A DNA stretch of 64,000 nt from Spirochaetia bacterium (GTDB lineage Bacteria > Spirochaetota > Spirochaetia > UBA9216): contig OY776510.1 in the NCBI GenBank assembly GCA_963675665.1, forward strand, positions 4,480,001-4,544,000. Reading direction: 5' to 3'. Below the pieces are notes generated by a model that had not been told where the DNA came from, searched no databases, and was given only the letters and a program-made list of their open reading frames with translations. Below, piece after piece: positions 784-40,714 of the stretch. The first letter of the stretch is position 1. Every line of letters begins with the position of its first letter. A program made the translations under genes and the position numbers.

Positions 784-806
784 GCCCGTCGGCCGGAGGT
801 CCGGGC
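784..806 (+). repeat. Leader hairpin of scaffold-type cassette (C29)
   Basis: Exact GCCCGTCGGCCGGAGGTCCGGGC. Confidence 0.9.
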
Positions 807-878
807 TATTTCTTCAAACTTATTTTACACCCAGAAGGCTAACACTGCTATTATTTTTATTTTTAGCCCTTTAAGTGC

Positions 879-1016
879 ATTTAACGACCAAATCAGTTGC
901 AAAATCGGCCGAGTCTTCGAGGCTTGGCGCAGTTCTGGAGTGAAGCGCGATCAGCGCTGAACGTCTCCGCCAGAACTGTGACAAAGATTTTGACAACTGC
1001 ATTTGTCATGTTAAAT
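879..1016 (-). repeat. attC site (C28)
   Basis: ATTTAAC...GTTAAAT, paired L boxes with two extrahelical bases. Confidence 0.92.
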
Positions 1017-1029
1017 GCCTTTTCTTATC

Positions 1030-1054
1030 AGACCGTACGGCGGAGCCAAGGTCT
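1030..1054 (+). repeat. Trailer hairpin of scaffold-type cassette (C28)
   Basis: AGACCGTACGGCGGAGCCAAGGTCT, 20 nt from attC GTT. Confidence 0.9.
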
Positions 1055-1104
1055 GATTTCTTTTGATATTTATATTTTATAGCCAAGCTTCAAGTTCATT
1101 TTAT

Positions 1105-2478
1105 TCAATTTTCACACTGATTTATAAACTTTTCAACATATTTATAAATACTCTCATATTTTCTTGACTCACTATCCTCTGATAAAAATATTTTAAATTC
1201 TTCTCTTGCTAAATTAAAATCTTCATGCTTGTAAAAGAATAACAAGCCTAAACAATAATGCAATTGATATTTCTCAGGCTCCTCATCTAATATCCCATAT
1301 ATAAATTTTTCACATTGTATATGTACATTATTAGCAGCTCTATTTCTAAAACCTAATTTATAAAAATTATAAGCTTTATCTAACTTCTCTTCATAAGCAA
1401 ATAAAAATGCTTTACTATATGCCCATGTATAATCGCCGGTTGCTCTCTTCTTTGCTTCAAATAATCTTTCATGTGCAACTTTTAAATTTCTTTCATGAAA
1501 ATAAAAAATTGCACTAAGGGTACACATATCATAGCTCAAAGGACATAATTTTTCAGCTTCATGTACTTTTTCACCTATTTTCTCCCAATTACATTCCCCC
1601 AAATATTCATTTATTGCAAAGAAGTGTATTTCCGCCATTAGAAATTCTTTATTATTTTTCTGTATACGTTCAAAATTGGTTTTTAATATTTCAGTATCAC
1701 TTTCAATTTTGATTTGATTACATTTCTTATGCAATTTATATGCTATATCAATAAATCCATTATATGCACATGCTAATCCCAAAATATACAATGAGCCATA
1801 AGAAAATATAAGTGAATTCAGGCTGAAGCCAGTAAGTTCTTGATCATATGAAATCATTGAATTGCGAGGAAATACTGAATACATATCTTGAATAATATTA
1901 TTTTTCCTATCCAACGGTATAGTTTTATGAGAAATAGACTCATTAAATTCAATTACGTAATGCTCCTTACCATTTTGAATTCTATTCCTTGCAACACCAT
2001 ATAAAATAAATTTTGCTTTACTCTTATCATGATATTTCTTTGCTAACAATTTATTATCATTAATTTTCTCAGAATGATATTCAGACAATGTAATCACTTT
2101 AATTTTCTTATCTACACTTTTTATACTTCTTTCAATTTCATCAAAAAAATCTTTTTTAATTTTCTCTCTAACCTTATCATTATCTGTTCTAATCGCAAAC
2201 AAAACTCCAATATCATTTTTTCTAAATTTTGGGATTCTCCTTAAATAAAGCCATATAAAAATGAGAAATATATCTACTATACAAAAAACAATAATATTAT
2301 TTATTATTAAATTCTTATTCGTTGATAATACTTCCAAAGCTGGTATATTATAATCATCAATGGATCCATACAATTTGATTATCCAACTTATAAATAATAA
2401 GAATTGAACCCCTGTAATTGAAATTTTCCTTTCAAGGAGTAGTTTCATTCTGCGCAATGTATCATAACTATCTAACAT
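1105..2478 (-). CDS. Membrane-anchored TPR-like protein (C28; near-identical copy of C20)
   Basis: Two N-terminal hydrophobic helices, C-terminal TPR-like pattern (LHYCLGLLFFY...AREEFKIFL). Confidence 0.75.
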   Translation of the reverse strand: MLDSYDTLRRMKLLLERKISITGVQFLLFISWIIKLYGSIDDYNIPALEVLSTNKNLIINNIIVFCIVDIFLIFIWLYLRRIPKFRKNDIGVLFAIRTDNDKVREKIKKDFFDEIERSIKSVDKKIKVITLSEYHSEKINDNKLLAKKYHDKSKAKFILYGVARNRIQNGKEHYVIEFNESISHKTIPLDRKNNIIQDMYSVFPRNSMISYDQELTGFSLNSLIFSYGSLYILGLACAYNGFIDIAYKLHKKCNQIKIESDTEILKTNFERIQKNNKEFLMAEIHFFAINEYLGECNWEKIGEKVHEAEKLCPLSYDMCTLSAIFYFHERNLKVAHERLFEAKKRATGDYTWAYSKAFLFAYEEKLDKAYNFYKLGFRNRAANNVHIQCEKFIYGILDEEPEKYQLHYCLGLLFFYKHEDFNLAREEFKIFLSEDSESRKYESIYKYVEKFINQCEN

Positions 2479-2517
2479 TTTATAATCTCCGATTTTATTC
2501 TTAATAATTCTATCATC

Positions 2518-2540
2518 GCCCGTCGGCCGGAGGTCCGGGC
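2518..2540 (+). repeat. Leader hairpin (C28)
   Basis: Exact 23-nt core. Confidence 0.9.
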
Positions 2541-2611
2541 GATTTCTCTTACTTATTTTACACCCAGAACTCGAAAACGGCTAACAATTTCATCGAAACA
2601 TCCCTAAGTGC

Positions 2612-2751
2612 ATTTAACGACGTTTTGAGCTGCCTGGCGGCCGCAGTCTTCTGCGGCATTGGCGTGATTCTGGAGTGGAGCGCGATCAGCGCGAAACGTC
2701 TCCGCCAGAATCATGACAATAGCCAGGACTGCTCCAAAACTTTTGTTATAT
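2612..2751 (-). repeat. attC site (C27)
   Basis: ATTTAAC...GTTATAT family repeat. Confidence 0.92.
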
Positions 2752-3073
2752 TTTTGTCTTTCATAATAAGTTTTCAATATCATCAAGTGATAATTTCTCA
2801 TATTCAATATCATATCCTGGATATTTCATTATTAAATTCTTTGCTTTTTCTTTTAGTTTATCCAATTTTATCTTATCTTTATTCATCTTTACTTCTACAA
2901 TTATCAATTTCTTTTCAATTTCATCTAATGCGACTATATCTATTTCATTCTTATTACCTTTTTCCCAATATGTACCAATTAATCCAAGATTCGGATTATC
3001 TTTTTTTATCTCAATAAATAATTTTTCTAATATTGGTCCAGAATATGTACTTAAATCTTTTTCTATAATTTTC

Positions 3074-4348
3074 CATAGCTGTCCAAAATAAGGACTATTA
3101 ATAGCCTGAATCCCTGGTTATAATGAATTGAGCGGGCAAGCTTAAATCATTACAACGGAAGGAAAACAGGCAATGAGTTATAAGAATAGCATTTTAAATC
3201 AGATACTTCAAATCATTCCGAGACATGAATTTGAAAGATCTGTCAGAAAGTATAAAGGAGATTTTGCTTCAAAAGGATTCTCCTGTTGGGAACAATTTGT
3301 TTCAATGCTGTTTGCCCAATTTACAGGACAGACCGGACTTAGAGGCATAGAAACAGCATTGGATTCGATTAAAAACATGCTTTATCATTTGGGGGTAAAA
3401 AAGATTAAACGCTCAACACTTTCCTATGCAAATAACAACAGACCCTCAGAAATTTATGAAAATGTATTCAATAACCTGCTGACAAAGATCCTTAAAATGA
3501 AAAGGTCTCATAAGCATAGATTTAAAAATCCGCTGTACAGTGTTGATGCGACAACCATCGATTTATGCCTGTCAGTATTTCCATGGGCGAAGTTTAGAAA
3601 GAATAAAGGCGGAATCAAACTTAATGTAAAACTTGATCACAGCGGATATATTCCGGACTTTGTATCTGTTACAACAGCTCAAACCCATGAGCTTAATTCA
3701 CTCAAGAAAATGAAATTCAATAAAGGTGATGTAGTTGCATTCGATCGGGCCTATACAGATTTCAAATTATTTGCAAGTTATTGTATTGCAGGCATTTATT
3801 TTATTACTCGTATGAAAAAGAATGCAGATTATAAAGTTTTTCAAAGAAATAATGTTTCAAAATATGAAAATATTTCATCAGATCAAATAATTGAAATGCG
3901 AGGATACTACACCAGCAAGAAGTGTCCACTCCAATTACGGCGAATTAGAATAAAAGATCCGGAAACAGGAAAATATATTGTAATTCTTACAAATCAGCTT
4001 GATTGGGCACCTACAACAGTTGCTGCTGTCTATAAGGACAGATGGCAGATAGAAATATTCTTCAAAACAATCAAACAGAACCTGAAAATAAAGAAGTTTT
4101 TTGGAACGACGAAAAATGCAGTAATGACTCAGATCTGGATAGCATTGATAACTCATCTGATGCTGCAATATCTGAAGATGTTATCTTCCGGTGGATGGAC
4201 TCATTATTCGCTTATGAAATTGCTTCCATCAATCCTGACGACCAGAAAAGATCTCTGGAATATTCTGAATAAACTACCGCCGCCCGGCAGAAATGAGCCA
4301 GGCTTAAAACTTCAAATGGAGCTGTTATGATTGTTTTGGACAGCTATG
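3074..4348 (+). mobile_element. IS4-family insertion sequence, copy 1 (1275 bp)
   Basis: IRs CATAGCTGTCCAAAA / TTTTGGACAGCTATG; 9-bp TSD ATAATTTTC. Confidence 0.95.
3173..4330 (+). CDS. IS4-family DDE transposase
   Basis: VDATTI, FDRAY, YKDRWQIEIFFK (YREK) motifs. Confidence 0.95.
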   Translation: MSYKNSILNQILQIIPRHEFERSVRKYKGDFASKGFSCWEQFVSMLFAQFTGQTGLRGIETALDSIKNMLYHLGVKKIKRSTLSYANNNRPSEIYENVFNNLLTKILKMKRSHKHRFKNPLYSVDATTIDLCLSVFPWAKFRKNKGGIKLNVKLDHSGYIPDFVSVTTAQTHELNSLKKMKFNKGDVVAFDRAYTDFKLFASYCIAGIYFITRMKKNADYKVFQRNNVSKYENISSDQIIEMRGYYTSKKCPLQLRRIRIKDPETGKYIVILTNQLDWAPTTVAAVYKDRWQIEIFFKTIKQNLKIKKFFGTTKNAVMTQIWIALITHLMLQYLKMLSSGGWTHYSLMKLLPSILTTRKDLWNILNKLPPPGRNEPGLKLQMELL

Positions 4349-5398
4349 ATAATTTTCTTTATTAATTCATATCGTTCATCCTCTATTAGCCTTATATTTT
4401 TATAAATATATCTAAACCAGAATTTTATAAAATTATCCTTTATTCCATATTTTTGACTTTTTCCATTTTTTTTACTTCCAACTGGTTTTATTTTTTCAAT
4501 TACATCATATTCTACTTCTAACTTTTCTAAATACCCGCCTATACTTTTTTCTAATATGGATTCTATTTCACTTCGAGAAGTACGCCCAACTGAAATCATC
4601 TCCAATATTGAAAAATATATTCCATAATCCTTTCCAAATTCTTGAATTAATAAATTCTTTCCTTCTCCTATAAAAAAAGAGTCCTTTTCCAATATCAAAT
4701 CAAGTATTTTATCAAAGCTATAACATTTTTCTTTTACCAATATTTCTTGGTATCTTGGCACTCCACCTGTTATTAAATAATTATAAAAAAGATTTTCTTT
4801 GCTGTAAGCATTATTATCAATTAATATTTCTTTTATAACTTTCACTTCAAAAGGTTTTATATATAAAATTCTATCTGCCCTTCCATATAAAGGTTCTTTT
4901 GAATTTTGAAAGATTCGTATCATCATTGAGTATATCGAACCTATAAATATTACATAGACTTTTGTCTCAAATTTATATTTATCCCATAAATTTTGTATTT
5001 CAGAATAAATACTCGAATTTATATTATTAAACTCCTGAAACTCATCTATTATTAATACATAAGGATTGTCTTTTCCAAATTTCAATAATTGCTCGAATAA
5101 CTTTGTGAAACTCTTTACTTCTCCAATTATTTCCTGACCAGTAAATTTTTCATATTCTTCTTTCAATTCTTCACACAATAACGGTTCAGCTTTTTTACTT
5201 GTAAAGAAATATAGGTGCTTTTTATCTTTGGCAAATTCTTTTGATAACAGTGTTTTCCCTACACGACGTCTACCTGTTAAAACAGTTATTGCTCCGTATG
5301 ATTCTTCACATTTTGAGTATATATCGTTTAATATTGTTAATTCTTTATAACGGTCATAAAATCTCATAGCAACCTCCGTTACTGTAACAGCTATTGCT

Positions 5399-5428
5399 AT
5401 TATAATATCCTTATCACGGAGTTGTCAA
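5399..5428 (-). promoter_or_regulatory. Cassette-borne sigma70 promoter (C27)
   Basis: TTGACA-18-TATAAT, followed by GGAGG RBS. Confidence 0.75.
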
Positions 5429-5431
5429 TAA

Positions 5432-5567
5432 ATATAACGACGATTTGAGTAGCAAAATTGATCGGCGTCTTCGCCGAATTGGCGCGATTCTGGAACGAGC
5501 GATCAGCGAGTGTCTTTAGCCAGAATCGTGACAATAAATTTTGACTACTCCAAATCTTTTGTTATAT
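5432..5567 (-). repeat. attC site (C26)
   Basis: ATATAAC...GTTATAT family repeat. Confidence 0.92.
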
Positions 5568-5580
5568 GCCATATTTTATC

Positions 5581-5605
5581 AGACCGTACGGCGGAGCCAA
5601 GGTCT
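5581..5605 (+). repeat. Trailer hairpin (C26)
   Basis: AGACCGTACGGCGGAGCCAAGGTCT. Confidence 0.9.
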
Positions 5606-5618
5606 GATTTCTTCATAA

Positions 5619-6740
5619 TTACGATCTACTTAGATCTTTGAAATGTATTTCTACAACTTTTGAATAATTACCATAAGTTCTTATCAATTTCTTAGTTTTG
5701 ATAAATAATTCCTCATCTCTTAATTTATTTCTTAATAATTCTACATACTCTGATTTAATCATATTCGCATTTATATAAAATCTTAATAAATCTTCTATCT
5801 CTTTATTATTATTTATTCCTTGATCATTTTTAATTTCATCTTCATTTTCTTTTGCTTTATCTTCTATAATTTCTTGTTCTTCAATTTTTTCATTACTTTC
5901 AGATAATGGAGAATTAGTGTCCGAACTTTCTATATCATTCTTTAATTGCTCTCCGAAAAAAGAATATACAACTCCTGAAAATGTACCATAAGTTCTTATC
6001 AATTTAATAGCATGTTCATAATTATTTCTTTTCATCAGATTTTTATATAAATTGTTCATCTCAAAATCATTTATATTTCTGGAATTAATATAATGCTCAG
6101 TAATTGACTTTATTTTTTCAAATTTTTCTTGCTCAGTATGTTCATCTTTTATTATTGGTTTTTCAGGTAATATGTTTATGGCCACTTTTTTCGGGCCATT
6201 ATATTTCCATCTATTCTTTAAATAAATTCCGTTTATCAGCCACAAAACTGGATTAAATGAAATTATCGTCGCAATCAAGAATGCATATTTATTATATTTA
6301 AGAATTTGAATCATTAATACATTTATAATAATCATGTATATTATTCCAAAAACTGGATATTCAATTGCTGTAAATATTAAAATTATATTTCCTAAAGTTA
6401 AATTTAGCCAACCCCAGAATTTCCACCATTCATATCCCCAATCGTTATTATCATTTAAATTATTCTCTTTTTTTTCACAACTACTTTTTTTATCATTTTT
6501 TCCCTTTGCGTTATTGATTATATTGCCTACAACATTATCTTTGTGCTCCACTTTAATGGGAAGATTTTCTATACTTTTATTATTTTCTTTTATTTTATCA
6601 ACTTTTAAATTAATGTATTTATACTTGGCCTTTACTTCATCTCCTTCAGAGAGAACTATTGCTTTTGCCCATAATGCTTCATCAACATCACCACTTTCAA
6701 ATTCTTTTGTGATATTCAAAAATATAACTTCATCATCCAT
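5619..6740 (-). CDS. Hypothetical membrane protein with duplicated C-terminal module (C26)
   Basis: Central hydrophobic helices; YIN...KLIRTYG..S.VV occurs twice. Confidence 0.75.
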   Translation of the reverse strand: MDDEVIFLNITKEFESGDVDEALWAKAIVLSEGDEVKAKYKYINLKVDKIKENNKSIENLPIKVEHKDNVVGNIINNAKGKNDKKSSCEKKENNLNDNNDWGYEWWKFWGWLNLTLGNIILIFTAIEYPVFGIIYMIIINVLMIQILKYNKYAFLIATIISFNPVLWLINGIYLKNRWKYNGPKKVAINILPEKPIIKDEHTEQEKFEKIKSITEHYINSRNINDFEMNNLYKNLMKRNNYEHAIKLIRTYGTFSGVVYSFFGEQLKNDIESSDTNSPLSESNEKIEEQEIIEDKAKENEDEIKNDQGINNNKEIEDLLRFYINANMIKSEYVELLRNKLRDEELFIKTKKLIRTYGNYSKVVEIHFKDLSRS

Positions 6741-6814
6741 AAATATTCCTTTTTAATTATCAAACAATTACACCATATTCTTTTGTATCATTTTCGCATT
6801 TCAATTTCTTCATA

Positions 6815-6837
6815 GCCCGTCGGCCGGAGGTCCGGGC
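6815..6837 (+). repeat. Leader hairpin (C26)
   Basis: Exact 23-nt core. Confidence 0.9.
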
Positions 6838-6906
6838 TATTTCTTCTTCATTTTACACCCAACAGCCCAAATCACCTAATATTTTTATTTCATCTCAATT
6901 TCGTGC

Positions 6907-7052
6907 ATATAACGACAATTTGAGCTGCGCCCTCGCTCCTGGAGCGAAGCGGAAGGAATTGGCGTGATTCTGGAGTGTAGCGCGATCAGCGCGGAACGTC
7001 TCTGCCAGAATCATGACAATAGACGGCGACTGCTCCAAATTTTTTGTTAAAT
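6907..7052 (-). repeat. attC site (C25)
   Basis: ATATAAC...GTTAAAT family repeat. Confidence 0.92.
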
Positions 7053-7064
7053 GCCTTTCTTAGC

Positions 7065-7089
7065 AGACCGCACGACGGAGTCAAGGTCT
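7065..7089 (+). repeat. Trailer hairpin (C25)
   Basis: AGACCGCACGACGGAGTCAAGGTCT. Confidence 0.9.
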
Positions 7090-7097
7090 GGTTTCTA

Positions 7098-8240
7098 TTA
7101 ATCTATATATTTCTTCAGTTTTCTTTGAACTAAATTTAAAGATATATTATCCTTATAAGTAAAATAGATCACGTTTACTTTGTTTTCTTTACATAACTCA
7201 AATTTCTGCTTATCTCTTTTTTGCCCTTTTAAAAATGCTTCCTCTCCACCAAAAACATTTACCGGTACAAAATGCTGTTTTCCTTGATACTCAATAGCTA
7301 AATTTATTTCTTTTATAAAAATATCTATTCTTAATGGACTCAACCAAGAAGGACTATATTCACGAATAATAGTATAATCAGAAAAATTTTCCTTTATTAT
7401 TGAATATAAAAGACCTTCATTTTTCCATTTTGATGTTTTTAACAATCTATCAATTTCGGCTCTTGCTGTTTGTGAATCAATTTCGGCAAATAGCTCCATA
7501 TAATCAATAAAAGGCTTTTTATAAAAAATGTAGTTTGTTCCATATTTTGATTGAAGAATTTTAATTCCATCATTTTTTGCTATGCACAAATGACAAATAT
7601 TTTCACGTATTTTTGCTCCATCAGGAATACCTCCTGCTTTTTTAAATACTTCTTTCGAACATGCACAAATATTAGCACCACCATTTATAGCATTGTAATA
7701 GATTGGTAATAATCGTCTTTTATCCTCACTGATATATTTCTCATCCCATATCAAATAATCTTCAATTTTATTTTTATTGTATATATTTATAACATTCTTA
7801 AATATAATAGAGGGCAGGAATAATGTAGATAATCTAGTTTTTAAATTTACTTGTGTCTTTAGTTCTTTTTTATAAAAATGTTGATTTTTTCTTACACCAT
7901 AACCATAATTATAATATTTAAATTCTGCACCAATTACTTCGAATTCAATTTCTTCGATAATCGTTGGTTTTTTCCATTTTGTAATTATATCAATATTATG
8001 TATTTTCAATCCGTCTTCTATTAACATATTTATGGATAAATTTTTATTATTATAACAATCATGTGTTAATACTGAAAAATCAATATTGTTTTCTATACTT
8101 TCATTAATTTGCTTATTCATTTCATCATAAATCTTTTCTTTTATTACTCTTTCTACATCTTTTATAGGTTTCTTAGGCTTTTTTGATAAAGATTTAACTA
8201 TATCATTCTCAATCTTATGAAAATTCAATATAATATTCAT
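7098..8240 (-). CDS. Protein with C-terminal DUF559/Vsr-like PD-(D/E)xK nuclease domain (C25)
   Basis: LRIDIFIKEINLAIEYQGKQH...RDKQK motif; CxC/CxxC cluster upstream. Confidence 0.7.
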   Translation of the reverse strand: MNIILNFHKIENDIVKSLSKKPKKPIKDVERVIKEKIYDEMNKQINESIENNIDFSVLTHDCYNNKNLSINMLIEDGLKIHNIDIITKWKKPTIIEEIEFEVIGAEFKYYNYGYGVRKNQHFYKKELKTQVNLKTRLSTLFLPSIIFKNVINIYNKNKIEDYLIWDEKYISEDKRRLLPIYYNAINGGANICACSKEVFKKAGGIPDGAKIRENICHLCIAKNDGIKILQSKYGTNYIFYKKPFIDYMELFAEIDSQTARAEIDRLLKTSKWKNEGLLYSIIKENFSDYTIIREYSPSWLSPLRIDIFIKEINLAIEYQGKQHFVPVNVFGGEEAFLKGQKRDKQKFELCKENKVNVIYFTYKDNISLNLVQRKLKKYID

Positions 8241-9240
8241 ATATTATTCCGCATAACATTCACAATTTTTCATTATCCATTTAGAACCGGTGAAACAGTT
8301 AATTTTTTTAACGCTTTTTCATAGAATCCAAAATCAGAATCTGAATATATAGTCTGTAAACCTTTAACTAATTCTAAATCATTCTTTTGTTCATATTCAA
8401 GAAGACCTTTATGTATAACTGTCCTATATAGTTTACATGATAAAGGAGACGTCATATATATTTTTTTAACCAAAGTACTACAAAACTTTTCTGAATCTAT
8501 TTGTTTTTTTGCAGGGAAAACTACATTTATTGTCTTATTAGGATCAATATTATTAACATTTACTCTTGTTGAAGAAAATATTATTCCATCAATATTACTA
8601 TTTCTTTGCACATGTTGCATTAATATTTGTGGGATAATATATTCTGGTTTAAAAGGCATCTGCCTTTCTTTTACTTTAATTTGACATGATGCAATAATAG
8701 GCCAAAGAATTAAATAACTATTTATTGTTTTAATTAATGTCTTAATTGTAATCCTTTCATCAAATTCTTCTTCCGGAAATTTATTCAAATATGATAATAG
8801 TATTTTATTTGTAACTGATATATTGAGCAAATTTACAGTATTATCTTCTGCTAATTCGAATTTAGAAATATGTATCTCATCAAATGATGGACGATCCATT
8901 TCCTCCCAACAGATGTAAGATGACGTTCCTAAATATAAAGCAGGATTTCCTGGTATACTAAAACGGTATGAATTTATGATTCTTCGCTTATTGTAAGGTA
9001 CATGAAATAAGTCTCCCATTTCTAACGATGGCAAGTCTGAAAGTCTTATTCTATATAATTCTTTGTATGGCATTAATTCTTTATCACGTTCAAGTAATTT
9101 AAAGCTATCAAGTACTGGATCTATTTTTTTCATAAGATAATTGAAACTATTATAAGAGGCGATTACATTTCCTTCTAAATAATGAGAAATAACCAATAAG
9201 ATTTTCTCTTCGACTTTTTTAATCATTTGATAATCATTTT

Positions 9241-10515
9241 CATAGCTGTCCAAAATAAGGACTATTAATAGCCTGAATCCCTGGTTATAATGAATTGAGC
9301 GGGCAAGCTTAAATCATTACAACGGAAGGAAAACAGGCAATGAGTTATAAGAATAGCATTTTAAATCAGATACTTCAAATCATTCCGAGACATGAATTTG
9401 AAAGATCTGTCAGAAAGTATAAAGGAGATTTTGCTTCAAAAGGATTCTCCTGTTGGGAACAATTTGTTTCAATGCTGTTTGCCCAATTTACAGGACAGAC
9501 CGGACTTAGAGGCATAGAAACAGCATTGGATTCGATTAAAAACATGCTTTATCATTTGGGGGTAAAAAAGATTAAACGCTCAACACTTTCCTATGCAAAT
9601 AACAACAGACCCTCAGAAATTTATGAAAATGTATTCAATAACCTGCTGACAAAGATCCTTAAAATGAAAAGGTCTCATAAGCATAGATTTAAAAATCCGC
9701 TGTACAGTGTTGATGCGACAACCATCGATTTATGCCTGTCAGTATTTCCATGGGCGAAGTTTAGAAAGAATAAAGGCGGAATCAAACTTAATGTAAAACT
9801 TGATCACAGCGGATATATTCCGGACTTTGTATCTGTTACAACAGCTCAAACCCATGAGCTTAATTCACTCAAGAAAATGAAATTCAATAAAGGTGATGTA
9901 GTTGCATTCGATCGGGCCTATACAGATTTCAAATTATTTGCAAGTTATTGTATTGCAGGCATTTATTTTATTACTCGTATGAAAAAGAATGCAGATTATA
10001 AAGTTTTTCAAAGAAATAATGTTTCAAAATATGAAAATATTTCATCAGATCAAATAATTGAAATGCGAGGATACTACACCAGCAAGAAGTGTCCACTCCA
10101 ATTACGGCGAATTAGAATAAAAGATCCGGAAACAGGAAAATATATTGTAATTCTTACAAATCAGCTTGATTGGGCACCTACAACAGTTGCTGCTGTCTAT
10201 AAGGACAGATGGCAGATAGAAATATTCTTCAAAACAATCAAACAGAACCTGAAAATAAAGAAGTTTTTTGGAACGACGAAAAATGCAGTAATGACTCAGA
10301 TCTGGATAGCATTGATAACTCATCTGATGCTGCAATATCTGAAGATGTTATCTTCCGGTGGATGGACTCATTATTCGCTTATGAAATTGCTTCCATCAAT
10401 CCTGACGACCAGAAAAGATCTCTGGAATATTCTGAATAAACTACCGCCGCCCGGCAGAAATGAGCCAGGCTTAAAACTTCAAATGGAGCTGTTATGATTG
10501 TTTTGGACAGCTATG
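9241..10515 (+). mobile_element. IS4-family insertion sequence, copy 2
   Basis: Same IRs; 9-bp TSD AATCATTTT. Confidence 0.95.
9340..10497 (+). CDS. IS4-family DDE transposase
   Basis: Identical protein to 3173-4330. Confidence 0.95.
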   Translation: MSYKNSILNQILQIIPRHEFERSVRKYKGDFASKGFSCWEQFVSMLFAQFTGQTGLRGIETALDSIKNMLYHLGVKKIKRSTLSYANNNRPSEIYENVFNNLLTKILKMKRSHKHRFKNPLYSVDATTIDLCLSVFPWAKFRKNKGGIKLNVKLDHSGYIPDFVSVTTAQTHELNSLKKMKFNKGDVVAFDRAYTDFKLFASYCIAGIYFITRMKKNADYKVFQRNNVSKYENISSDQIIEMRGYYTSKKCPLQLRRIRIKDPETGKYIVILTNQLDWAPTTVAAVYKDRWQIEIFFKTIKQNLKIKKFFGTTKNAVMTQIWIALITHLMLQYLKMLSSGGWTHYSLMKLLPSILTTRKDLWNILNKLPPPGRNEPGLKLQMELL

Positions 10516-10717
10516 AATCATTTTTATTTATTGTTATATGAGGGTTTTTATCAATAATGCCTTCAACAAATCTATTATATTTTTTAAAAACATGCTTTAA
10601 CCCTGTTGAAATATTTTCTGATGTAAGAACTATTGGAAATCCTATAATCTCATTTGAAAGTATCTCTTTTAATGTTTTCATACTAAACACCTTTTAGATT
10701 TTATGCTTTATTCTTTC

Positions 10718-10740
10718 GCCCGTCGGCCGGAGGTCCGGGC
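10718..10740 (+). repeat. Leader hairpin (C25)
   Basis: Exact 23-nt core. Confidence 0.9.
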
Positions 10741-10812
10741 GATTTCTTCTCCCCTATTTTACACCTCAAAACGGTTATCAGCTAACATTTTTATTGAATC
10801 AATCTAATGTGC

Positions 10813-10950
10813 ATTTAACGACGATTTGAGTAGCAAAATCGGCCGAGTCTTCGAGGCTTGGCGCAGTTCTGGAACGTAGCGCGATCAGCGCGGAGTGTCT
10901 CTGCCAGAACTGTGACAAAGATTTTGACTACTCCAAATCTCTTGTTATAT
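10813..10950 (-). repeat. attC site (C24)
   Basis: ATTTAAC...GTTATAT family repeat. Confidence 0.92.
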
Positions 10951-10963
10951 GCTGTTCTTAACC

Positions 10964-10988
10964 AGACCGTACGGCGGAGCCAGGGCTG
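10964..10988 (+). repeat. Trailer hairpin (C24)
   Basis: AGACCGTACGGCGGAGCCAGGGCT variant. Confidence 0.85.
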
Positions 10989-11078
10989 GTTTATTATCTA
11001 ACTTTATTGAAATTCATAGCATTTTTTTGATGACCGTCCTAATCGGATTAAAACAGCCTATTTCTTCAATTATAAAAG

Positions 11079-11537
11079 CTATTCCTTTACAAATTCCTTT
11101 ACTTCTTCATAAATTTTTTCTAATTCTTTTTTATCAATTGTATACTTCCCAACATTTTCATCTAAATGCTGAATTGCAAATTTACTCCAAGTATATAGAT
11201 AAGCATTTCTATCTGAGACGCTATGATACGCGACTCCATACTGCAATACAACTTTATTATAAACTTCGTCAGAAAATTCCTTTATTTCAGATTCTGGAAA
11301 ATTCCTTGAATGATATTCTTCCATCATATCTATCTTTATATCTTTAATGGTTTCCATCATCTTTTTATATTCTTCTCTTTTAATATCATCTTCATTTCTT
11401 TTTTTATTTATTTGCTTCCGAATATAATCAATAACAAAGCAAATACCTATAATTATTATAGTTGCTCTTATTGCAAAAGGGAGAGTATCAAAAAAATAAA
11501 ACAATAAAATACATCCAGCAGCTATTAATATTTGCAT
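11079..11537 (-). CDS. Hypothetical membrane protein (C24)
   Basis: Two N-terminal TM helices, AGGAG upstream. Confidence 0.7.
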   Translation of the reverse strand: MQILIAAGCILLFYFFDTLPFAIRATIIIIGICFVIDYIRKQINKKRNEDDIKREEYKKMMETIKDIKIDMMEEYHSRNFPESEIKEFSDEVYNKVVLQYGVAYHSVSDRNAYLYTWSKFAIQHLDENVGKYTIDKKELEKIYEEVKEFVKE

Positions 11538-11555
11538 CTTTTCTTCTCCTATTTC

Positions 11556-12044
11556 TTATGGATATGCTTCACAAAGTGTTAAAGCGTCAGTATATTTTAT
11601 TTCTTTTTTTATTTTATAATGTTCTTGTATTTCATTATATTTTAATCTTCTTCCTGAAGTAGCTTCATAATAATAGTTCTTCCATTTTACCCAAGCATGC
11701 CCGTTTCCATCAACTGTGCCTGTTATTATAATTGGATCACTAAATTTTCCTGGCAAACTATTCTTTATCTTATAAGCGAGCAATATTGAAAAATCCTCAC
11801 AATCTCCAGTTTTACGATGTATTGTTTCTTGGGGTAATTGCCAATAATCTTTGACACCATGTACATATTCATCTTTTCTATAATTTATTTCTTCTTGTAT
11901 TTCATAACGGTATTTCGCAACCATAGCATGACTTGCTGGCCTTAAAATGAAAATATTTATTATCCATCCAACCGTAGAGAATATAAACAAAGAAATATAT
12001 ATTACCCCACAACCATTTCCAATAATTTTAAACGGATTTATCAT
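11556..12044 (-). CDS. Transglutaminase-like cysteine peptidase with N-terminal TM helix (C24)
   Basis: DYWQLPQET...GDCEDFSIL...GHAWV. Confidence 0.8.
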   Translation of the reverse strand: MINPFKIIGNGCGVIYISLFIFSTVGWIINIFILRPASHAMVAKYRYEIQEEINYRKDEYVHGVKDYWQLPQETIHRKTGDCEDFSILLAYKIKNSLPGKFSDPIIITGTVDGNGHAWVKWKNYYYEATSGRRLKYNEIQEHYKIKKEIKYTDALTLCEAYP

Positions 12045-12109
12045 CCTTCACCTCATAATAATGACATCCAATCAAAATATTCATTATGACTAAATATGCA
12101 CTCTTCACA

Positions 12110-12132
12110 GCCCGTCGGCCGGAGGTCCGGGC
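12110..12132 (+). repeat. Leader hairpin (C24)
   Basis: Exact 23-nt core; flanks covary (ACA..TGT). Confidence 0.9.
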
Positions 12133-12204
12133 TGTTTCTTCTCACTTATTTTACACCCAACCAAAAAAATAACCTAACATTTTTATTTTTTCCTAATTTC
12201 ATGC

Positions 12205-12350
12205 ATATAACGACAAAATCAGTTGCGCCCTCGATCCTGAGCCGCAGGCGAAGGAATTGGCGTGATTCTGGAACGTAGCGCGATCAGCGCGGAGTGTCTC
12301 CGCCAGAATCATGACAATAGACGGCGACAACTGCATTTTTTTTGTTATAC
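12205..12350 (-). repeat. attC site (C23)
   Basis: ATATAAC...GTTATAC family repeat. Confidence 0.92.
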
Positions 12351-12977
12351 ATAATTTTCAAATATCTTTAATGTTTTCCTGAAATCTTGTTCAATATCTT
12401 TCAATATTTTTGGAGTTTCATTCTGTATTAATTCACAACTTTTTTCCCATATATTTTCTGCTCGTTCATCCAATCCTTTATCTTCATTCTTAACAACTGA
12501 ATTTTTAAAAAATATGATTTGATCACTTATTTGTTTTATAAATCCATCTATTTTTTTAGTTATATCTTCATCAAGAAACAATCTATTCATAGAATAATAT
12601 TCATATAATTCTTTATACTTTTTATTATATTCTTCATATCTTTCCTTTTTTGAAGGCCAAGAAGACTGTTCTATTACACTTACAAGAAATGAAGCACTAT
12701 TCTGAAATTCAATAATTCTTTTATAAATTTCATGCACAGCATCTAATTTTTTCTCATAAATTCTTTTATATGAAATATCATGCTCTATTATTCTTTTATT
12801 AAGCTCATGCTTATATATTTCCATATTTCTATTGTATTCATTGCTTAATTCATTTTTATTTTTTTCTAAATTCTTATCTGATAAATATTTTATCAAATTT
12901 GTAGCGCTAAACGTAATTATTGCGGCTATAACACCTGGAAGACCAATTTCTTTAATAATAAATTCAAATAAATCCAT
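12345..12977 (-). CDS. Hypothetical single-TM coiled-coil protein (C23)
   Basis: 210-aa ORF whose TAA lies in the attC R'' core. Confidence 0.75.
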   Translation of the reverse strand: MDLFEFIIKEIGLPGVIAAIITFSATNLIKYLSDKNLEKNKNELSNEYNRNMEIYKHELNKRIIEHDISYKRIYEKKLDAVHEIYKRIIEFQNSASFLVSVIEQSSWPSKKERYEEYNKKYKELYEYYSMNRLFLDEDITKKIDGFIKQISDQIIFFKNSVVKNEDKGLDERAENIWEKSCELIQNETPKILKDIEQDFRKTLKIFENYV

Positions 12978-13003
12978 AAAACTTTTTTCCTATATATATT
13001 TAT

Positions 13004-13519
13004 TTACTCATAATCCTGATTATGATCATATATACAATTTTTTATATCACCCTTTTCATCCACTAATATGTAATAGCCACGGAAGGTGCCTCTCACATAT
13101 TTTTCTCTAAAACGATTTTTTTCGATCAAGTCACTCCACTTGTATCTCCAAATCTTGTTAACCGTATAATCTTTTCTTAAGTTGACGAAAACAAGATCAG
13201 TTGGTGTATTTTCACCATTAATCTTAGGAATTATACTAGTCTGCTTCCATCCGCTATTTCGACCCTTTCGAGTCTTAACAGATATTTTCAATCCTTCTTT
13301 GGTTTCAACATCATGCTCATTAGAATCATCGACAAGAAAACCGCCAAAAATCATTTTAGTATATATTTCTCCCAAACATCCTACAATCTCATTTCCTTTT
13401 AAAACTTTTCCATTTGAATAATTTTTCAATATTTCAACAATTTCTTCTTGGATTGATTGTAATACATTAAATTTCTTTAGCAATTCGCTTTCTAATTGTT
13501 TAAATGCATCATTTTCCAT
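13004..13519 (-). CDS. Putative PD-(D/E)xK nuclease-fold protein (C23)
   Basis: G.LGE...HDVET...ISVKTR. Confidence 0.6.
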   Translation of the reverse strand: MENDAFKQLESELLKKFNVLQSIQEEIVEILKNYSNGKVLKGNEIVGCLGEIYTKMIFGGFLVDDSNEHDVETKEGLKISVKTRKGRNSGWKQTSIIPKINGENTPTDLVFVNLRKDYTVNKIWRYKWSDLIEKNRFREKYVRGTFRGYYILVDEKGDIKNCIYDHNQDYE

Positions 13520-13537
13520 TTATAACCCTCTATTTAT

Positions 13538-13679
13538 GTATAACGACAATTTTAGCTGCCTGGCGGCGCGCGTCTTCGCGCGCATTGGCGCGGTTTTAGA
13601 GCGTAGGCACGATCAGTGCCGTAGCGTCTCCGCTAAAACCGTGACAATAGCCAGGACTGCTACAAATTTCATGTTTTGT
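13538..13679 (-). repeat. attC site (C22)
   Basis: GTATAAC...GTTTTGT family repeat. Confidence 0.9.
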
Positions 13680-14308: not shown

Positions 14309-14447
14309 GACAATTTGAGCTGCGCCCTCGATCCTGGAGCGAAGCGGAAGGAATTGGCGTGATTCTGGAGTGTAGCGCGATCAGCGCGAAACGTCTCCGC
14401 CAGAATCATGACAATAGACGGCGACTGCTCCAAATTTTTTGTTAAAT
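14302..14447 (-). repeat. attC site (C21)
   Basis: ACAAAAC...GTTAAAT family repeat. Confidence 0.92.
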
Positions 14448-14460
14448 GCCGCTTCTTACC

Positions 14461-14485
14461 AGACCGCACGGCGGAGTCAAGGTCT
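14461..14485 (+). repeat. Trailer hairpin (C21)
   Basis: AGACCGCACGGCGGAGTCAAGGTCT. Confidence 0.9.
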
Positions 14486-14522
14486 GGTTCTATTCTTTTA
14501 AAATAGAATTACATCAATTAAT

Positions 14523-16044: not shown

Positions 16045-16057
16045 GCCTTTTCTTATC

Positions 16058-28430: not shown

Positions 28431-28503
28431 AATTTCTTCTTGCTTATTTTACACCCAGAACACGAAATCTACTATTATTTTTATTTGAACACCCTTTAAG
28501 TGC

Positions 28504-28642
28504 ATTTAACGACGATTTGAGTAGCAAAATTGTTCGGCGTCTTCGCCGAATTGGCGCGATTCTGGAGTGAGGGCCATTGCCCGAACGTCTTTAGCCAGAA
28601 TCGTGACAATAAATTTTGACTACTCCAAATCTCATGTTTTAC
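28504..28642 (-). repeat. attC site (C12)
   Basis: ATTTAAC...GTTTTAC family repeat. Confidence 0.9.
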
Positions 28643-30420: not shown

Positions 30421-30488
30421 TATTTATCTTATTCTACCCCCAATCTCAAATAATAGCTAATAAAGTTATTGGGCATTTTAGAGTGTGT

Positions 30489-30628
30489 ATTTAACGACGT
30501 TTTGAGCTGCCTGGCGGCGCGTGTCTTCACGCGCATTGGCGTGATTCTGGAGTGTAGCGCGATCAGCGCGAAACGTCTCCGCCAGAATCATGACAATAGC
30601 CAGGACTGCTCCAAAACTTTTGTTATAC
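30489..30628 (-). repeat. attC site (C10)
   Basis: ATTTAAC...GTTATAC family repeat. Confidence 0.92.
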
Positions 30629-38140: not shown

Positions 38141-38153
38141 GCCGTTTCTTACC

Positions 38154-38178
38154 AGACCGAACGACGGAGTCGAGGTCT
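38154..38178 (+). repeat. Trailer hairpin (C5)
   Basis: AGACCGAACGACGGAGTCGAGGTCT. Confidence 0.9.
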
Positions 38179-38211
38179 GGTATTAATATAAATTACAATA
38201 TAATCTAATAT

Positions 38212-40452
38212 TCATGATCTGCTAAAAAGATCATGTATATCAGAAATATAGTTCACTCCTTTATAGTCACCATCATCGTCAGGTCTATAATTATCTAAGA
38301 AACTATCAACCATCCCATCGATGTCTATTTCCGATTCAATTAACTCTTTTAAATCTATATCAATTTCTCCTATTTCGGTATTTGATACTAGAAATAACGA
38401 TTCATCTAATTTCTCTTCAAAATAATTTACTATCCCAGTGTAATCAACATTTAAATCTTCACGAAAATCGATATAATTTCCTATCTCAATTTCATTTTCT
38501 AAATCACTTATTTCATATGATAAGTATTCACCAATAATTTCTTTCCTAAAATCAATAAAATCTTGATCATATTGATCTAATTTTAAATAGATTTCTGTGA
38601 TAAGATTTATTTCCTTATATGAAATGCTTTCACCACTACTAATAATCTCAATTAATTTATTTGTTGTGAGATTGTTTAAATTTATAAAAATCTCATTAAT
38701 AAGAAAAAGAAGCTTTGATATTTCAGAGATACCAGCACAATCAGCTAAAACTGCATCTATCATATTTGACACAGCTTCCGTATCATTATTTATTTCATAA
38801 TAAATAAAACATAAATATATTGTATAATTACTTTCAAAATCAGTATTATAATTCCCAAATACATTTTCTATGATTGTGCAATATTGTTCATATTTAATAA
38901 GTTCACTTTTGTAAATTGAGTATATTTGTTCTAATGATTTTATAGTATTTAATGATTGCATAATTAATATAATTTCATCAATTTCACCTACATAATTTCT
39001 AAGAATATAATCTGATATAGATGGATTAAACACTGTATAATCAATTATTCCAGCACTCATATTTTTAACAATCATAGATTTTGTAGACAATTTTATTATC
39101 GTATCAAATCTATAATCTATTGTTTTTGATTCTTCGATCTTTTTTAGACTACAATATTCTTTATATGCTTTTTTTAAATCTTCTTCTCCAATTTTACCAC
39201 CATTAAATACTACCAAGAATACAACACTTCTTATATAAATATTGCTTTGCACATCAAGATATTTCTCCCAAATATCTGCAGGATTATTCAATCTATCAAT
39301 AATTGAAATCCAATAATTTACAAGATCAGTATCGATCCTATCAATATCAGTAATAAACTCAATTAACCTAGGATTATAATTCCTATGTAAAATTACTTTC
39401 ATATAATTCGAATCTTTATAAAATTCATCAATGTAATCATCACCTAAATTACTAAACCAAATATGATTATATAAAATTCGGGCTTTATCCATTATAGATA
39501 AATCATTCATAGTCATTAAGAATTCATTCTTGTTTAATTTTTTGTCATTAAATACTGGACTAACATGTAAACCTTTATTTATTATGTTTGTTCTTGAAGT
39601 TAAAATAAAGATTTTATTCTTGGCCCTATTAATTCTTTCAATAAAATTCATTATATGCGTATCTTTTCTATTTTCTATTGCTTCAAAATAATTACTACCT
39701 AGAAAATCATCGAAATAAAATATTTGTTTGGAATCTTTATCAAATAAATCCTCCCCTTCTTTAACACCTTCTTCAATTGCTATAAACTCGTAATCATGTG
39801 CTAAATAATGCAAGCATAAATTATTTGCTAAGGTTGTCTTACCAATTCCTGGTTCTCCAGAAATTATTATCACCTTATTTCTTTTTAAATGTTCTAATGC
39901 ACGATAATGATTTTCAGTATAAACATATTTATTAGAATTTAACTTAATATTTTCAATAATAAACTCGCTACGACCTTTAATTGCATTTTTAAGAATTCTT
40001 GATAATACTGTTGAGCTATTAATCCATAATTTATAGTGCTTTTCTTCGATTTGTTTATATTCACTTAAGAAATCATTAAGATCCTCACAACCCCAAATAT
40101 CTGATTCAATTTTTATATAAGGAGCAAAAATTGACTTTATTTTAGTTTTATTCGCTCTTGATAAGGGTACAGATGTTACAAATATATATTTAGCTGGTTT
40201 TAGTTTCTTAACTTTTAAAGCCTCTTTGTGTTCTAAATCATATAATAATTTTTTTAATCCGGATTGATAATAGTGTTTACATTGTAAGATTTCTTCTTTC
40301 CTATCAATGTTAAAATATCGTCCATCAACCCCTGCATCTTTGCCTGGTTTAAAACGTTCTATTCGCTTGTTTGTAACTTTAGTAACTAAATCACAAACAA
40401 GATATTCAAATTCTTTATCGTTTAAACTGCTAAAGGTATAATCCATATCCAA
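38212..40452 (-). CDS. Mrr-like restriction endonuclease fused to nSTAND3-type NTPase (C5)
   Basis: EFEYLVCDL...GKDAGVD...QCKHY; GEPGIGKT; FDDFLG; LTSR; NYNPRLIE. Confidence 0.82.
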   Translation of the reverse strand: MDMDYTFSSLNDKEFEYLVCDLVTKVTNKRIERFKPGKDAGVDGRYFNIDRKEEILQCKHYYQSGLKKLLYDLEHKEALKVKKLKPAKYIFVTSVPLSRANKTKIKSIFAPYIKIESDIWGCEDLNDFLSEYKQIEEKHYKLWINSSTVLSRILKNAIKGRSEFIIENIKLNSNKYVYTENHYRALEHLKRNKVIIISGEPGIGKTTLANNLCLHYLAHDYEFIAIEEGVKEGEDLFDKDSKQIFYFDDFLGSNYFEAIENRKDTHIMNFIERINRAKNKIFILTSRTNIINKGLHVSPVFNDKKLNKNEFLMTMNDLSIMDKARILYNHIWFSNLGDDYIDEFYKDSNYMKVILHRNYNPRLIEFITDIDRIDTDLVNYWISIIDRLNNPADIWEKYLDVQSNIYIRSVVFLVVFNGGKIGEEDLKKAYKEYCSLKKIEESKTIDYRFDTIIKLSTKSMIVKNMSAGIIDYTVFNPSISDYILRNYVGEIDEIILIMQSLNTIKSLEQIYSIYKSELIKYEQYCTIIENVFGNYNTDFESNYTIYLCFIYYEINNDTEAVSNMIDAVLADCAGISEISKLLFLINEIFINLNNLTTNKLIEIISSGESISYKEINLITEIYLKLDQYDQDFIDFRKEIIGEYLSYEISDLENEIEIGNYIDFREDLNVDYTGIVNYFEEKLDESLFLVSNTEIGEIDIDLKELIESEIDIDGMVDSFLDNYRPDDDGDYKGVNYISDIHDLFSRS

Positions 40453-40483
40453 TTAAATTCCTATTTATAATAATACATTCTTA

Positions 40484-40506
40484 GCCCGTCGGCCGGAGGT
40501 CCGGGC
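40484..40506 (+). repeat. Leader hairpin (C5)
   Basis: Exact 23-nt core. Confidence 0.9.
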
Positions 40507-40575
40507 TATTTCTTACTAATTTTACACCCAGCAACAGAAATATCCTAACATTTTTATTATTCTCCCATTTCGTGC

Positions 40576-40714
40576 ATTTAACGACGATTTGAGTAGCGAA
40601 ACCGGCCGAGTCTTCGAGGATTGGCGCAGTTCTGGAACGCAGCGCGATCAGCGCGGAGTGTCTTTAGCCAGAACTGTGACAAAGGTTTTGACTACTCCAA
40701 ATCTCTTGTTATAC
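40576..40714 (-). repeat. attC site (C4)
   Basis: ATTTAAC...GTTATAC family repeat. Confidence 0.92.

Follow-up and report, generated by a model that had tools for sequence, protein, structure and literature searches.

What stays constant in an integron cassette when its genes are unrelated to those of its neighbours, and what could such a constant part be for? The question arises from a 64,000-nucleotide (nt) stretch, hereafter the window, of the chromosome of a marine spirochaete (genome G000, 5.15 Mb in one contig), where the integron integrase gene intI borders a long cassette array and ten of the 29 cassettes in the window carry a 23-nt hairpin, h1, upstream of their genes, accompanied in every complete case by a related hairpin, h2, downstream of them. 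Integron cassettes are commonly taken to consist of a gene and its attC site, and how attC sites are acquired, and how promoterless genes deep in an array are expressed, are open questions. Here we describe a second conserved layer, a 5'/3' hairpin pair placed around unrelated genes across several attC families and genera. The comparisons presented below show a bracket that is specific to cassettes, paired, selected, inherited with its cargo and independent of the attC family. Coordinates are window positions unless prefixed G000; the cassette genes lie on the minus strand, here the coding strand, and the plus strand is called the bottom strand.

The h1 hairpin (GCCCGTCGGCCGGAGGTCCGGGC) is present in the window in ten exact copies, all of them reading on the plus strand, and shuffled sequences predict none. 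Annotated on the minus strand together with their cassettes, the copies lie at 784-806 in C29 (with an outer stem that reaches 781-809), 2518-2540 in C28, 6815-6837 in C26, 10718-10740 in C25, 12110-12132 in C24, 15809-15831 in C21, 17546-17568 in C20, 28408-28430 in C13, 30398-30420 in C11 and 40484-40506 in C5. The related hairpin h2 was found in nine copies, seven of them within 3 mismatches of an earlier consensus and two, at 10964 and 29397, more diverged, with 4 mismatches. A covariance model trained on 15 h2 copies of the host genome recovered all nine (plus strand, E ≤ 3e-10) and no tenth. Annotated again on the minus strand, h2 spans 1025-1059 in C28 (a model span of 35 nt); consensus and covariance model both locate it at 5576-5610 in C26, 7060-7094 in C25, 14456-14490 in C21, 16053-16087 in C20, 24783-24817 in C13 and 38149-38183 in C5; and the covariance model places the two diverged copies at 10959-10992 in C24, with the outer stem shifted by one base, and at 29392-29426 in C11, where the outer stem is GGCC/GGCC, a compensatory variant.

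The ten cassettes, all on the minus strand, begin with a leader followed by h1, and the nine that are complete proceed through their cargo to h2 and attC. C5 (38007-40582) carries a STAND NTPase/Mrr gene, C11 (29248-30495) a DUF2971 gene followed by its divergent h2 and an attC with the core GTTAAATAC, C13 (24637-28510) an ankyrin/SH3 gene broken by two insertion sequence (IS) copies, C21 (14306-15913) a gene of 416 amino acids (aa), C24 (10811-12211) two genes (162 and 152 aa) in front of the other divergent h2, C25 (6905-10819) three genes (59, 326 and 380 aa) and an inserted IS, and C26 (5432-6913) a 373-aa gene. C20 (15905-17646) and C28 (877-2618) each carry a 457-aa gene and are duplicates, with proteins 99.8% identical and identical attC sites. 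C29 enters the window with its 5' part (1-885; leader, h1 and a 191-aa gene), and its partner h2 is located beyond the window edge, 427 nt to the left. Thus all nine complete h1 cassettes end in h2, and the other 19 cassettes of the window show neither hairpin. One of the latter, C12, lies between C11 and C13 and has a near-identical attC, yet it carries neither. Both hairpins are outside the R boxes and are absent from cassettes with the same attC, so they are not part of the attC site proper.

On the coding strand, these cassettes read G|TTAAATGCAC, around 40 nt, an A-rich tract, a -35-like TTAGnn, an 18-nt spacer, a TAAAAT box, a purine-rich linker of 10-17 nt, h1, a 5' untranslated region (5'UTR) in which the gene has its own Shine-Dalgarno sequence, one to three genes, h2, GRTAAGAAARG and finally the R'' core GCATTTAAC, with which attC begins. 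The end of h1 is 74-81 nt from the crossover and h2 begins 20 nt past the GTT of R'' (plus strand). The leader, which we call type 1, is a putative promoter, as suggested by its conserved pair of -35-like and -10-like boxes, and this promoter-like insert is found upstream of h1, not between h1 and the gene. In C29 it occupies 807-884 (minus strand), with an A-rich tract, the -35-like ATAGCA at 846-851 and the -10-like TAAAAT at 822-827, 15 nt upstream of h1. The other leaders, also on the minus strand and read from the sequence, are at 2541-2617, 6838-6912, 10741-10818, 12133-12210, 15832-15912, 17569-17645, 28431-28509, 30421-30494 and 40507-40581. The core GTTAWATRC and its complement are confined to the hairpin cassettes, with nine and ten copies, plus one attI-like site. 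When the pairing of cassette ends was compared, the 5' end of a cassette had its better partner in its own 3' end more often than in that of the upstream neighbour (17 against 6, with 9 ties, p = 0.012), and covariation of the core between both ends was seen in C11. This own-end preference confirms the canonical G|TT crossover and places h1 and h2 within the same mobile unit.

Most of what a preliminary description of this array had claimed was recovered in these counts: ten exact h1 at the positions it listed, nine h2 in the complete cassettes (two of them more diverged), a cassette numbering starting with C1 next to attI, which fits the attC sites detected with nhmmer, the perfect co-occurrence of both hairpins and their restriction to these cassettes, and the duplication of C20 and C28. 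Its distances (an h1 end 75-82 nt from the crossover and h2 at 19-20 nt from the GTT) shift slightly on recounting, to the values given above. The sharing of GTTAWATRC by these cassettes also stood, and the covariation of that core between ends, to which the same description had pointed, is just the ordinary R'/R'' complementarity of a cassette.

Pairing was then surveyed over the window plus ten contiguous stretches from four genomes. In every contiguous stretch h2 and h1 alternate strictly along the bottom strand, in such a way that 42 of the 45 h1 have an h2 partner within the stretch, or 43 of 45 when the partner of C29, just outside the window, is counted; two h1 at one locus have no confident partner and two h2 are orphans. 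Open reading frames (ORFs) on the coding strand were found in all of the 71 distinct bracketed units, none of which is empty or inverted, and the only opposite-strand genes within them are IS transposases. Start codons are mostly located 18-130 nt after h1, and stop codons between -3 and around 100 nt before h2. The bracketed cargo is as diverse as in any integron, and in agreement with the unrelatedness proposed for it earlier it includes GNATs, metallo- and serine-beta-lactamase folds, TIR, Mrr-type nucleases, HEPN, Shedu, SIR2, PIN, ParE/Phd, an outer-membrane barrel and a PAS response regulator, with many genes without a Pfam match.

Are the hairpins then restricted to cassettes in the rest of the genome and beyond? 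In the 5.15 Mb of the host genome, 15 copies of h1 (≤5 mismatches) and 17 h2-like copies were detected, all of them in three attC loci: the part of the main array next to the integrase, and two attC clusters without an integrase, located near 3.517 and 3.92 Mb. None lies elsewhere. Within the same family, h1 (≤2 mismatches) was present in six of the ten other genomes, across three genera, and with the same threshold it was found in none of 50 sampled genomes from other families of the class. When the 19-nt core of h1 was used to scan species-representative genomes, it gave at least 172 stretches; among the loci listed, at least 126 are AT-rich and carry the full 23-mer, nearly all of them in metagenome-assembled genomes (MAGs) of marine Spirochaetia, a handful lie on small contigs that binning had assigned to other phyla, and the rest are partial, high-GC chance matches. 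One chromosome holds roughly 90 copies of h1 over 314 kb, and 90 exact copies were found in metagenome contigs, many of them at contig ends; no exact copy was found in viral contigs.

The neighbourhood of these copies was nearly constant. An attC core of the R' type (xTAAC) follows h1 in 123 of 126 genome-contig contexts and, among the metagenome contexts whose flank is long enough, in 67 of 70, so that it is present within 95 nt of h1 in 190 of the 196 contexts tested; as a control, 284 of 2000 random windows had xTAAC within 50 nt. The distance from h1 to the core is 30-33 nt in 115 of the 126 genome-contig contexts, and otherwise 40-52 nt, or 79-83 nt in type 1. Among the six contexts without a core, five show degenerate cores at approximately the expected distance and the sixth (L133) is a GC-rich locus in a MAG of Treponemataceae (locus L293, around 1280-1480; G061:C3:813279-813478), where an intergenic stretch of 61% G+C contains three h1-like hairpins, one of them an exact 23-mer, and many GGAG motifs; it lies outside the integron array of that genome, and a search of 60 other genomes of the family showed no conservation of it. 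It was also observed that 18 of 88 distinct metagenome contexts of h1 (loci L202-L291) have a tail shorter than 60 nt. Contigs that end tens of bases past h1 suggest that assemblers break at the repeat, and such arrays may be under-assembled from short reads.

This distribution bears on the proposal that h1 and h2 are the ends of an element of the IS200/IS605 or REP/RAYT type, or ordinary dispersed repeats. IS200/IS605 elements and their non-autonomous derivatives have two similar subterminal hairpins in direct orientation that bracket a variable insert, and the resemblance is real in that h1 and h2 are also two related, imperfect hairpins in the same orientation around a variable insert, readable on one DNA strand. 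Unlike such elements, they are not dispersed, with no copy outside attC loci in the host genome and none in viral contigs, and they keep a fixed position beside attC, as the near-constant R'-type core indicates. Their main carriers also have no Y1 transposase: PF01797 (the Y1 HUH transposase; other HUH families were not searched) was found in none of five of the seven h1-positive genomes of the family (G000, G002, G004, G008 and G010), which hold from 2 to 15 copies of h1 each and include the four top carriers. Membership in the HUH/REP type was rejected on these two grounds, missing transposase and missing dispersal, and we consider this explanation very improbable.

The same hairpins were found around attC sites of different kinds. 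In the 3.517-Mb cluster, the attC is different from that of the window, with around 100 nt and a stem that extends 10-14 base pairs (bp) past the R boxes; here the promoter-like insert is absent, h1 is only around 30 nt away from the crossover, and R'' follows h2 after 8-27 nt. A third attC family, of around 190 nt, is present in one public spirochaete chromosome, and metagenomes and a MAG of Treponemataceae add a fourth type, with quite different linkers after h1. Sequence comparison thus indicates that h1 and h2 occur beside four or more unrelated families of attC, some with a promoter leader and some without one. The common order on the coding strand is the crossover, what is left of the attC stem, a purine linker, h1, the 5'UTR, the genes, h2, another purine linker and attC, to which the main array of the host adds the promoter-like insert. 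Regarding these sites, we also observed that, at L199 (G000 3510001-3530000) and related loci such as L036 and L084, the attC types outside the main array have stems extended by 10-14 bp past the R boxes, which leaves the crossover inside the stem, and that these extensions occur as a few discrete alleles; that the commonest stem extension in one public chromosome is GTTATCCACA, which includes a perfect DnaA-box-like TTATCCACA; and that G000 3518950-3519420 holds a fusion of two sites, the one a truncated type 2 and the other a full type 1.

If the attC sites vary and the hairpins do not, with which part of the cassette are the hairpins inherited? This was approached by comparing orthologous cassettes that end in different attC types. 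The first pair carries a gene for a metallo-beta-lactamase fold, in G008 with a type-2 attC and no promoter insert, and in G010 with a type-1 attC and a promoter-like leader. Identity is 23/23 for h1, 8/12 for the linker, 665/882 (75%) for the ORF and 22/31 for h2, and it is 37/61 in the 5'UTR, 114/200 in the 200 nt upstream and 88/150 in the 150 nt downstream, the values for the 5'UTR and the outer flanks being at the level that gap-tolerant alignment yields for unrelated attC types. In the second pair, with an Mrr-type nuclease gene in G010 (type 1) and in G000 (type 2), h1 is identical at 22/23 positions and the ORF at 599/780 (77%), the 200 nt upstream are at background (120/200), and the sole blastn high-scoring pair starts at the first base of h1; one of the two cassettes carries a second gene inserted before h2. 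Over both pairs the 5'UTRs are 61-67% identical and the outside flanks 54-60%, which is the level of unrelated sequence. A third case is the ankyrin/SH3 gene of C13, for which a homologue with 49% protein identity was found in a type-2 bracketed cassette of G008.

Homology in these pairs therefore extends from the linker or h1 through the gene, and up to h2 in the first pair, and stops there, which shows that the hairpins belong with the cargo and that attC cores and leaders have been exchanged around them. The hairpins are thus universal junction elements between two swappable modules, the cargo and the attC core, and not as a fixed vector backbone. The reusable backbone proposed in the preliminary description was correct regarding a paired, cassette-specific bracket, and incorrect in assuming a single fixed one, as at least four attC families are involved and attC and leader differ between orthologues. 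None of the alternatives that it had itself put forward was found: no scatter in the manner of REP repeats, with the 15 h1 and 17 h2 of the genome all in the three attC loci, no match to a known family in Rfam, and no cargo homology running past the hairpins in the orthologous pairs.

The structure of the hairpins was analyzed over all their contexts. Their outer stems reach up to 8 bp and the added pairs covary, with the variants ATAG/CTAT, ATCG/CGAT and ACAG/CTGT in h1, and ACCAGACC/GGTCTGGT versus ATCAGACC/GGTCTGAT in h2. Both h1 and h2 give stable folds on either strand, with -12 to -16 kcal/mol for the coding-strand RNA. In the seed alignment of h2, 89.6% of cells are paired versus 44% at most after sliding the partners, and double changes are found in four outer-stem pairs. 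Among 77 distinct sequences of h2, the inner stem occurs in six variants that preserve pairing (GGC/GCC, GAC/GTC, AAC/GTT, ATC/GAT, AGC/GCT and GCC/GGC); the loop, read on the bottom strand, is GGA in most of them and can also be AAC, ACC or TGGAA. For h1 the exact 23-mer is kept in 139 of 157 distinct contexts, and the remainder are mostly single changes, with one double compensatory change in the outer stem. In the host family the flanks are conserved as well, reading CAAGAGGAAATC-h1-GARGA and h2-AAGAAG on the coding strand. In the Treponemataceae MAG, h1 has two substitutions that give a perfect inner stem, and at least one h2 is nearly equal to the h1 sequence, which supports that h1 and h2 are related hairpins, as their alignment in the preliminary description had suggested. 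The overall pattern clearly points to strong purifying selection, acting on the sequence for h1 and on the structure for h2; since h1 remains identical where the neighbouring neutral sequence has diverged to background, this selection would be ongoing and h1 would not be a passive footprint. As a separate matter, the signal recognition particle (SRP) RNA of the host (G000 838084-838182, minus strand) has CCGTC-AGGTCCGG in common with the bottom strand of h1, with 14 of 17 positions and three single-base gaps; this likeness is probably due to chance between GC-rich hairpins.

What, then, would be selected? Our preferred reading, held tentatively, is that h1 and h2 may be mRNA end structures that insulate or stabilise the transcripts of the cargo. 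A role at the RNA level is favoured by the fact that the hairpins hug the coding region and travel with the gene, and that the promoter-like insert is upstream of h1; with the -10-like box at 10-17 nt upstream, h1 would sit at the very 5' end of the transcript. In such a transcript h1 and h2 would provide standard 5' and 3' end structures, which would protect the ends of the mRNA once the long hairpins of the attC RNA have been cleaved or have stalled ribosomes, and would prevent the attC arms from pairing with the ribosome-binding site of the cargo, in such a way that any gene placed between the hairpins could be expressed in any array context. As a by-product, the 23-35 conserved nt on each side of the cargo would offer a portable homology for re-assortment of cargo and attC, and exchange through this homology would explain such re-assortment without a special enzyme. 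If true, these RNA insulators would be a natural counterpart of the synthetic parts that give context-independent gene expression.

There are precedents for protective structures of this kind. Repetitive extragenic palindromic (REP) sequences, with the mosaic elements (BIMEs) that they form, and 5'-terminal stem-loops stabilise bacterial mRNAs, and REPs are dispersed over the chromosome and linked to RAYT transposases. Like these, h1 and h2 are small, GC-rich hairpins of conserved structure at the ends of coding regions, and would be able to protect transcript ends; unlike REPs, they are confined to integron cassettes, form a defined 5'/3' pair and have a fixed sequence in the case of h1. Three other possibilities were considered from the sequence and discarded: a leader peptide and a start inside h1, since no start codon is present, and a pseudoknot with the GAGG flanks, which the loop geometry forbids.

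Several observations, however, weigh against a role as mRNA end structures. A look-up of RNA sequencing runs listed none that contains window positions 600-7200. Hairpins are absent from 41 of the 51 cassettes of the main array, and a plain stabiliser needs no invariant 23-mer, so that the constraint on the sequence of h1 is left unexplained. The coding-strand RNA of h1 has an A-C mismatch in its inner stem where the bottom strand has a G-T wobble (-12.1 versus -15.5 kcal/mol). No U-tract follows h2 on the coding strand, so h2 is not a canonical terminator; purine-rich linkers without a U-tract follow both hairpins on that strand, which is not the arrangement of an intrinsic (Rho-independent) terminator. 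Finally, the fixed spacing of 30-33 nt between h1 and the crossover in most attC types, and the location of the hairpins at the foot of the extended attC stem, suit DNA folding.

These last features lead to a possible, though rather doubtful, role in single-stranded DNA (ssDNA), in which h1 and h2 of the bottom strand would flank the attC hairpin and clamp its folding, or serve as accessory sites for IntI or for host proteins. The ssDNA of the junction folds as three separate hairpins, h1, attC and h2, the spacing from h1 to the crossover is kept in most attC types, and between h2 and the extended attC stem there are 6-12 nt, the linkers being conserved. The G-T wobble of h1 pairs only on the bottom strand, where G-C and A-T variants restore full pairing. 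In tests of which strand is under selection, h1 favoured the bottom strand, its single-base variants giving three wobbles there versus one on the coding strand, and h2 showed no bias, which speaks against this role: its mean RNA energy is equal on both strands, and one conserved U-G pair accounts for most of the difference in wobble counts. Also against it, C12, hairpin-free beside C11 and C13 and with their near-identical attC, implies that IntI does not require the hairpins, and in type 1 h1 is 74-81 nt from the crossover with the promoter-like insert in between. The hairpins are also kept with the cargo when the attC type changes, and h1 is invariant despite the 42-72% identity among the IntI proteins of the family and the differing attC types.

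Transcription on the bottom strand offers another reading, in which the hairpins would be terminators or insulators against antisense transcription towards intI. In the host family, a T-rich pyrimidine tract follows both hairpins on the bottom strand, with the consensus GATTTCCTCTTG after h1 and around 50-67% T after h2, versus 38% in the background, and both intI and the IS transposase genes inside cassettes are encoded on that strand. Against it, exact copies of h1 in other attC lineages are followed by sequences free of T-tracts, such as GAGCCACCCC, a U-tract would not call for a linker pattern as specific as the conserved C/T one, and termination would not fix 23 nt. The hairpins, which have internal loops, were missed by a simple terminator scan; in a simple promoter scan, promoter-like sites were near the shuffle expectation. 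We regard this explanation as quite improbable.

The exchange of modules at the hairpins raises in turn the possibility that they were involved in making the cassettes. As adaptors of cassette assembly, h1 and h2 would mark the joints at which a dedicated or recombination-based process couples cargo to attC core, and would be footprints or recognition sites of cassette genesis. Near-identical ends around unrelated cargo, module boundaries that coincide with the hairpins in the orthologous pairs, the same hairpins in at least four attC families, an almost invariant h1 and the uniform orientation of the cargo all fit with this, which we nevertheless consider unlikely. Ordinary homologous exchange at conserved hairpins yields the same modular pattern, empty frames were not found among the 71 bracketed units, and the identity of h1 beside diverged neutral sequence argues for ongoing selection. 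In a more specific form, h1, h2 and their purine linkers would be adaptor sites of a modular assembly pathway, through which hairpin-capped cargo is joined and re-joined to interchangeable attC cores; this form is rather unlikely, and it would be the most consequential reading, bearing on the origin of cassettes; the step in which a new cassette is made would be directly visible and testable in spirochaete integrons.

The enzymes of the carriers also weigh against adaptors. The preliminary description had suggested looking for a gene whose presence covaries with the hairpins, and none of the candidates examined does so. The Y1 HUH transposase, as described above, is missing from five of the seven h1-positive genomes of the family, and RVT_1 is absent from three of the seven, without covariation with h1; the host genome has six identical copies of a reverse transcriptase, all of them far from the arrays. 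NusG-family proteins are encoded by two genes in all 11 genomes of the family, regardless of h1, and IntI is found in 10 of the 11, so that it does not discriminate by the presence of h1. With no covarying enzyme found, a mechanism of cargo capture remains speculation.

Comparison with known systems places the hairpins apart from them. The group IIC-attC intron model (PMC3001079) joins genes to attC and predicts a hairpin retained between gene and attC; unlike what is found here, that hairpin would be each gene's own terminator, with no conserved family and no 5' hairpin, and in our case the reverse transcriptase copies of the host are not at attC sites and three of seven h1-positive genomes show none. 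The DUF1874 RNA motif is described, in the relevant section of Weinberg et al. 2017 (PMC5737381), as a multi-stem structure in consecutive intergenic regions before unrelated genes, and its authors suspected an unusual attC site or an ssDNA structure. The resemblance lies in a conserved structure repeated before unrelated genes; the difference is that a canonical attC is also present here, separate from the hairpins, and that no Rfam match, DUF1874 included if it is in the library, was obtained at E ≤ 1. The Rfam searches gave no match at the gathering score in the window and none at E ≤ 1 in window positions 600-18000, and at E ≤ 1 only chance microRNA matches in six related loci. No description of conserved hairpins bracketing cassette cargo was found in the main-text portions of the literature searched, which included a review of cassette expression (PMC8876359), a study of Treponema integrons (PMC3607928) and PMC5737381, and the hairpin-pair module is apparently previously undescribed. 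In practical terms, it is a short and easily mutated element for probing the processing and stability of cassette mRNAs, the folding of attC and the exchange of modules, and its 23-mer is a convenient marker to fish such cassettes from metagenomes.

The platform in which the hairpins are found is a chromosomal integron. The tyrosine recombinase encoded at 45299-46318 (plus strand), divergent from the cassette array, scored 392.5 bits against TIGR02249 (cut-off 265), matched Pfam Phage_integrase and SAM_4, and aligned ungapped over its full length with VchIntIA (Protein Data Bank ID 2a3v), including the extra domain specific to IntI; these alignments identify it as a true integron integrase. 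The array would start at an attI-like core (GTTATATAC on the cassette strand; 44874-44890, minus strand, with the core match at 44880), whose position is putative, and runs leftward from intI with its genes in a single orientation on the minus strand. A search with nhmmer, using a profile of six attC copies, found 28 attC sites of around 140 nt in the window, corresponding to 28 complete cassettes and one cut by the window edge. In the whole genome the same search gave 51 sites in the main array (G000 4,417,885-4,524,338) and four strays. The G+C content of the array is around 30%, versus around 47% in the flanking chromosome. The attC sites are imperfect palindromes with RYYYAAC...GTTRRRY cores, and their ssDNA folds as a long bulged hairpin.

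In all this the locus is like the sedentary chromosomal integrons, such as the Vibrio VCR arrays (IntegronFinder, PMC4889954): the IntI has the integron-specific domain, its gene diverges from a long array in one orientation, the cassettes end in imperfect palindromes with RYYYAAC / GTTRRRY cores, and the cargo includes toxin-antitoxin and defence-type genes. Unlike them, the cassettes considered here contain a second conserved layer, which flanks the genes at either end and recurs across attC families, with one of its elements near-invariant.

Some additional features of the array were noted. To the left of the window it continues over G000 4417885-4478504 with 23 further attC sites, none of them with h1 or h2, and this distal part is interrupted by a 29-kb stretch free of attC (G000 4448013-4477447). 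Four plus-strand copies of a 385-aa transposase gene are located at 3173-4330, 9340-10497, 25474-26631 and 27047-28204 (DUF4372 and DDE_Tnp_1, an assignment based on a Pfam scan of the first copy); all four are antisense to the cassettes and directed towards intI, and the ankyrin/SH3 gene of C13 is the one interrupted by two of these insertions. Another element, of the IS66 family, with a TnpB-like gene and a transposase, lies within cassette C6 (35488-37427, minus strand). Finally, a cassette of around 620 nt is present in five copies, C1 (44202-44880), C7 (33558-34182), C8 (32936-33560), C17 (20587-21212) and C22 (13539-14308), with common ends, 5' TTTGTGTAAACGAGAATTGGGC... and 3' ...GGGCAAAGTAAGAAAAAGGATA...GGGGTCGTTACAC, and on the cassette strand no ORF in them reaches 50 aa; these may form a family of ORF-less cassettes, perhaps carrying a promoter or a small RNA.

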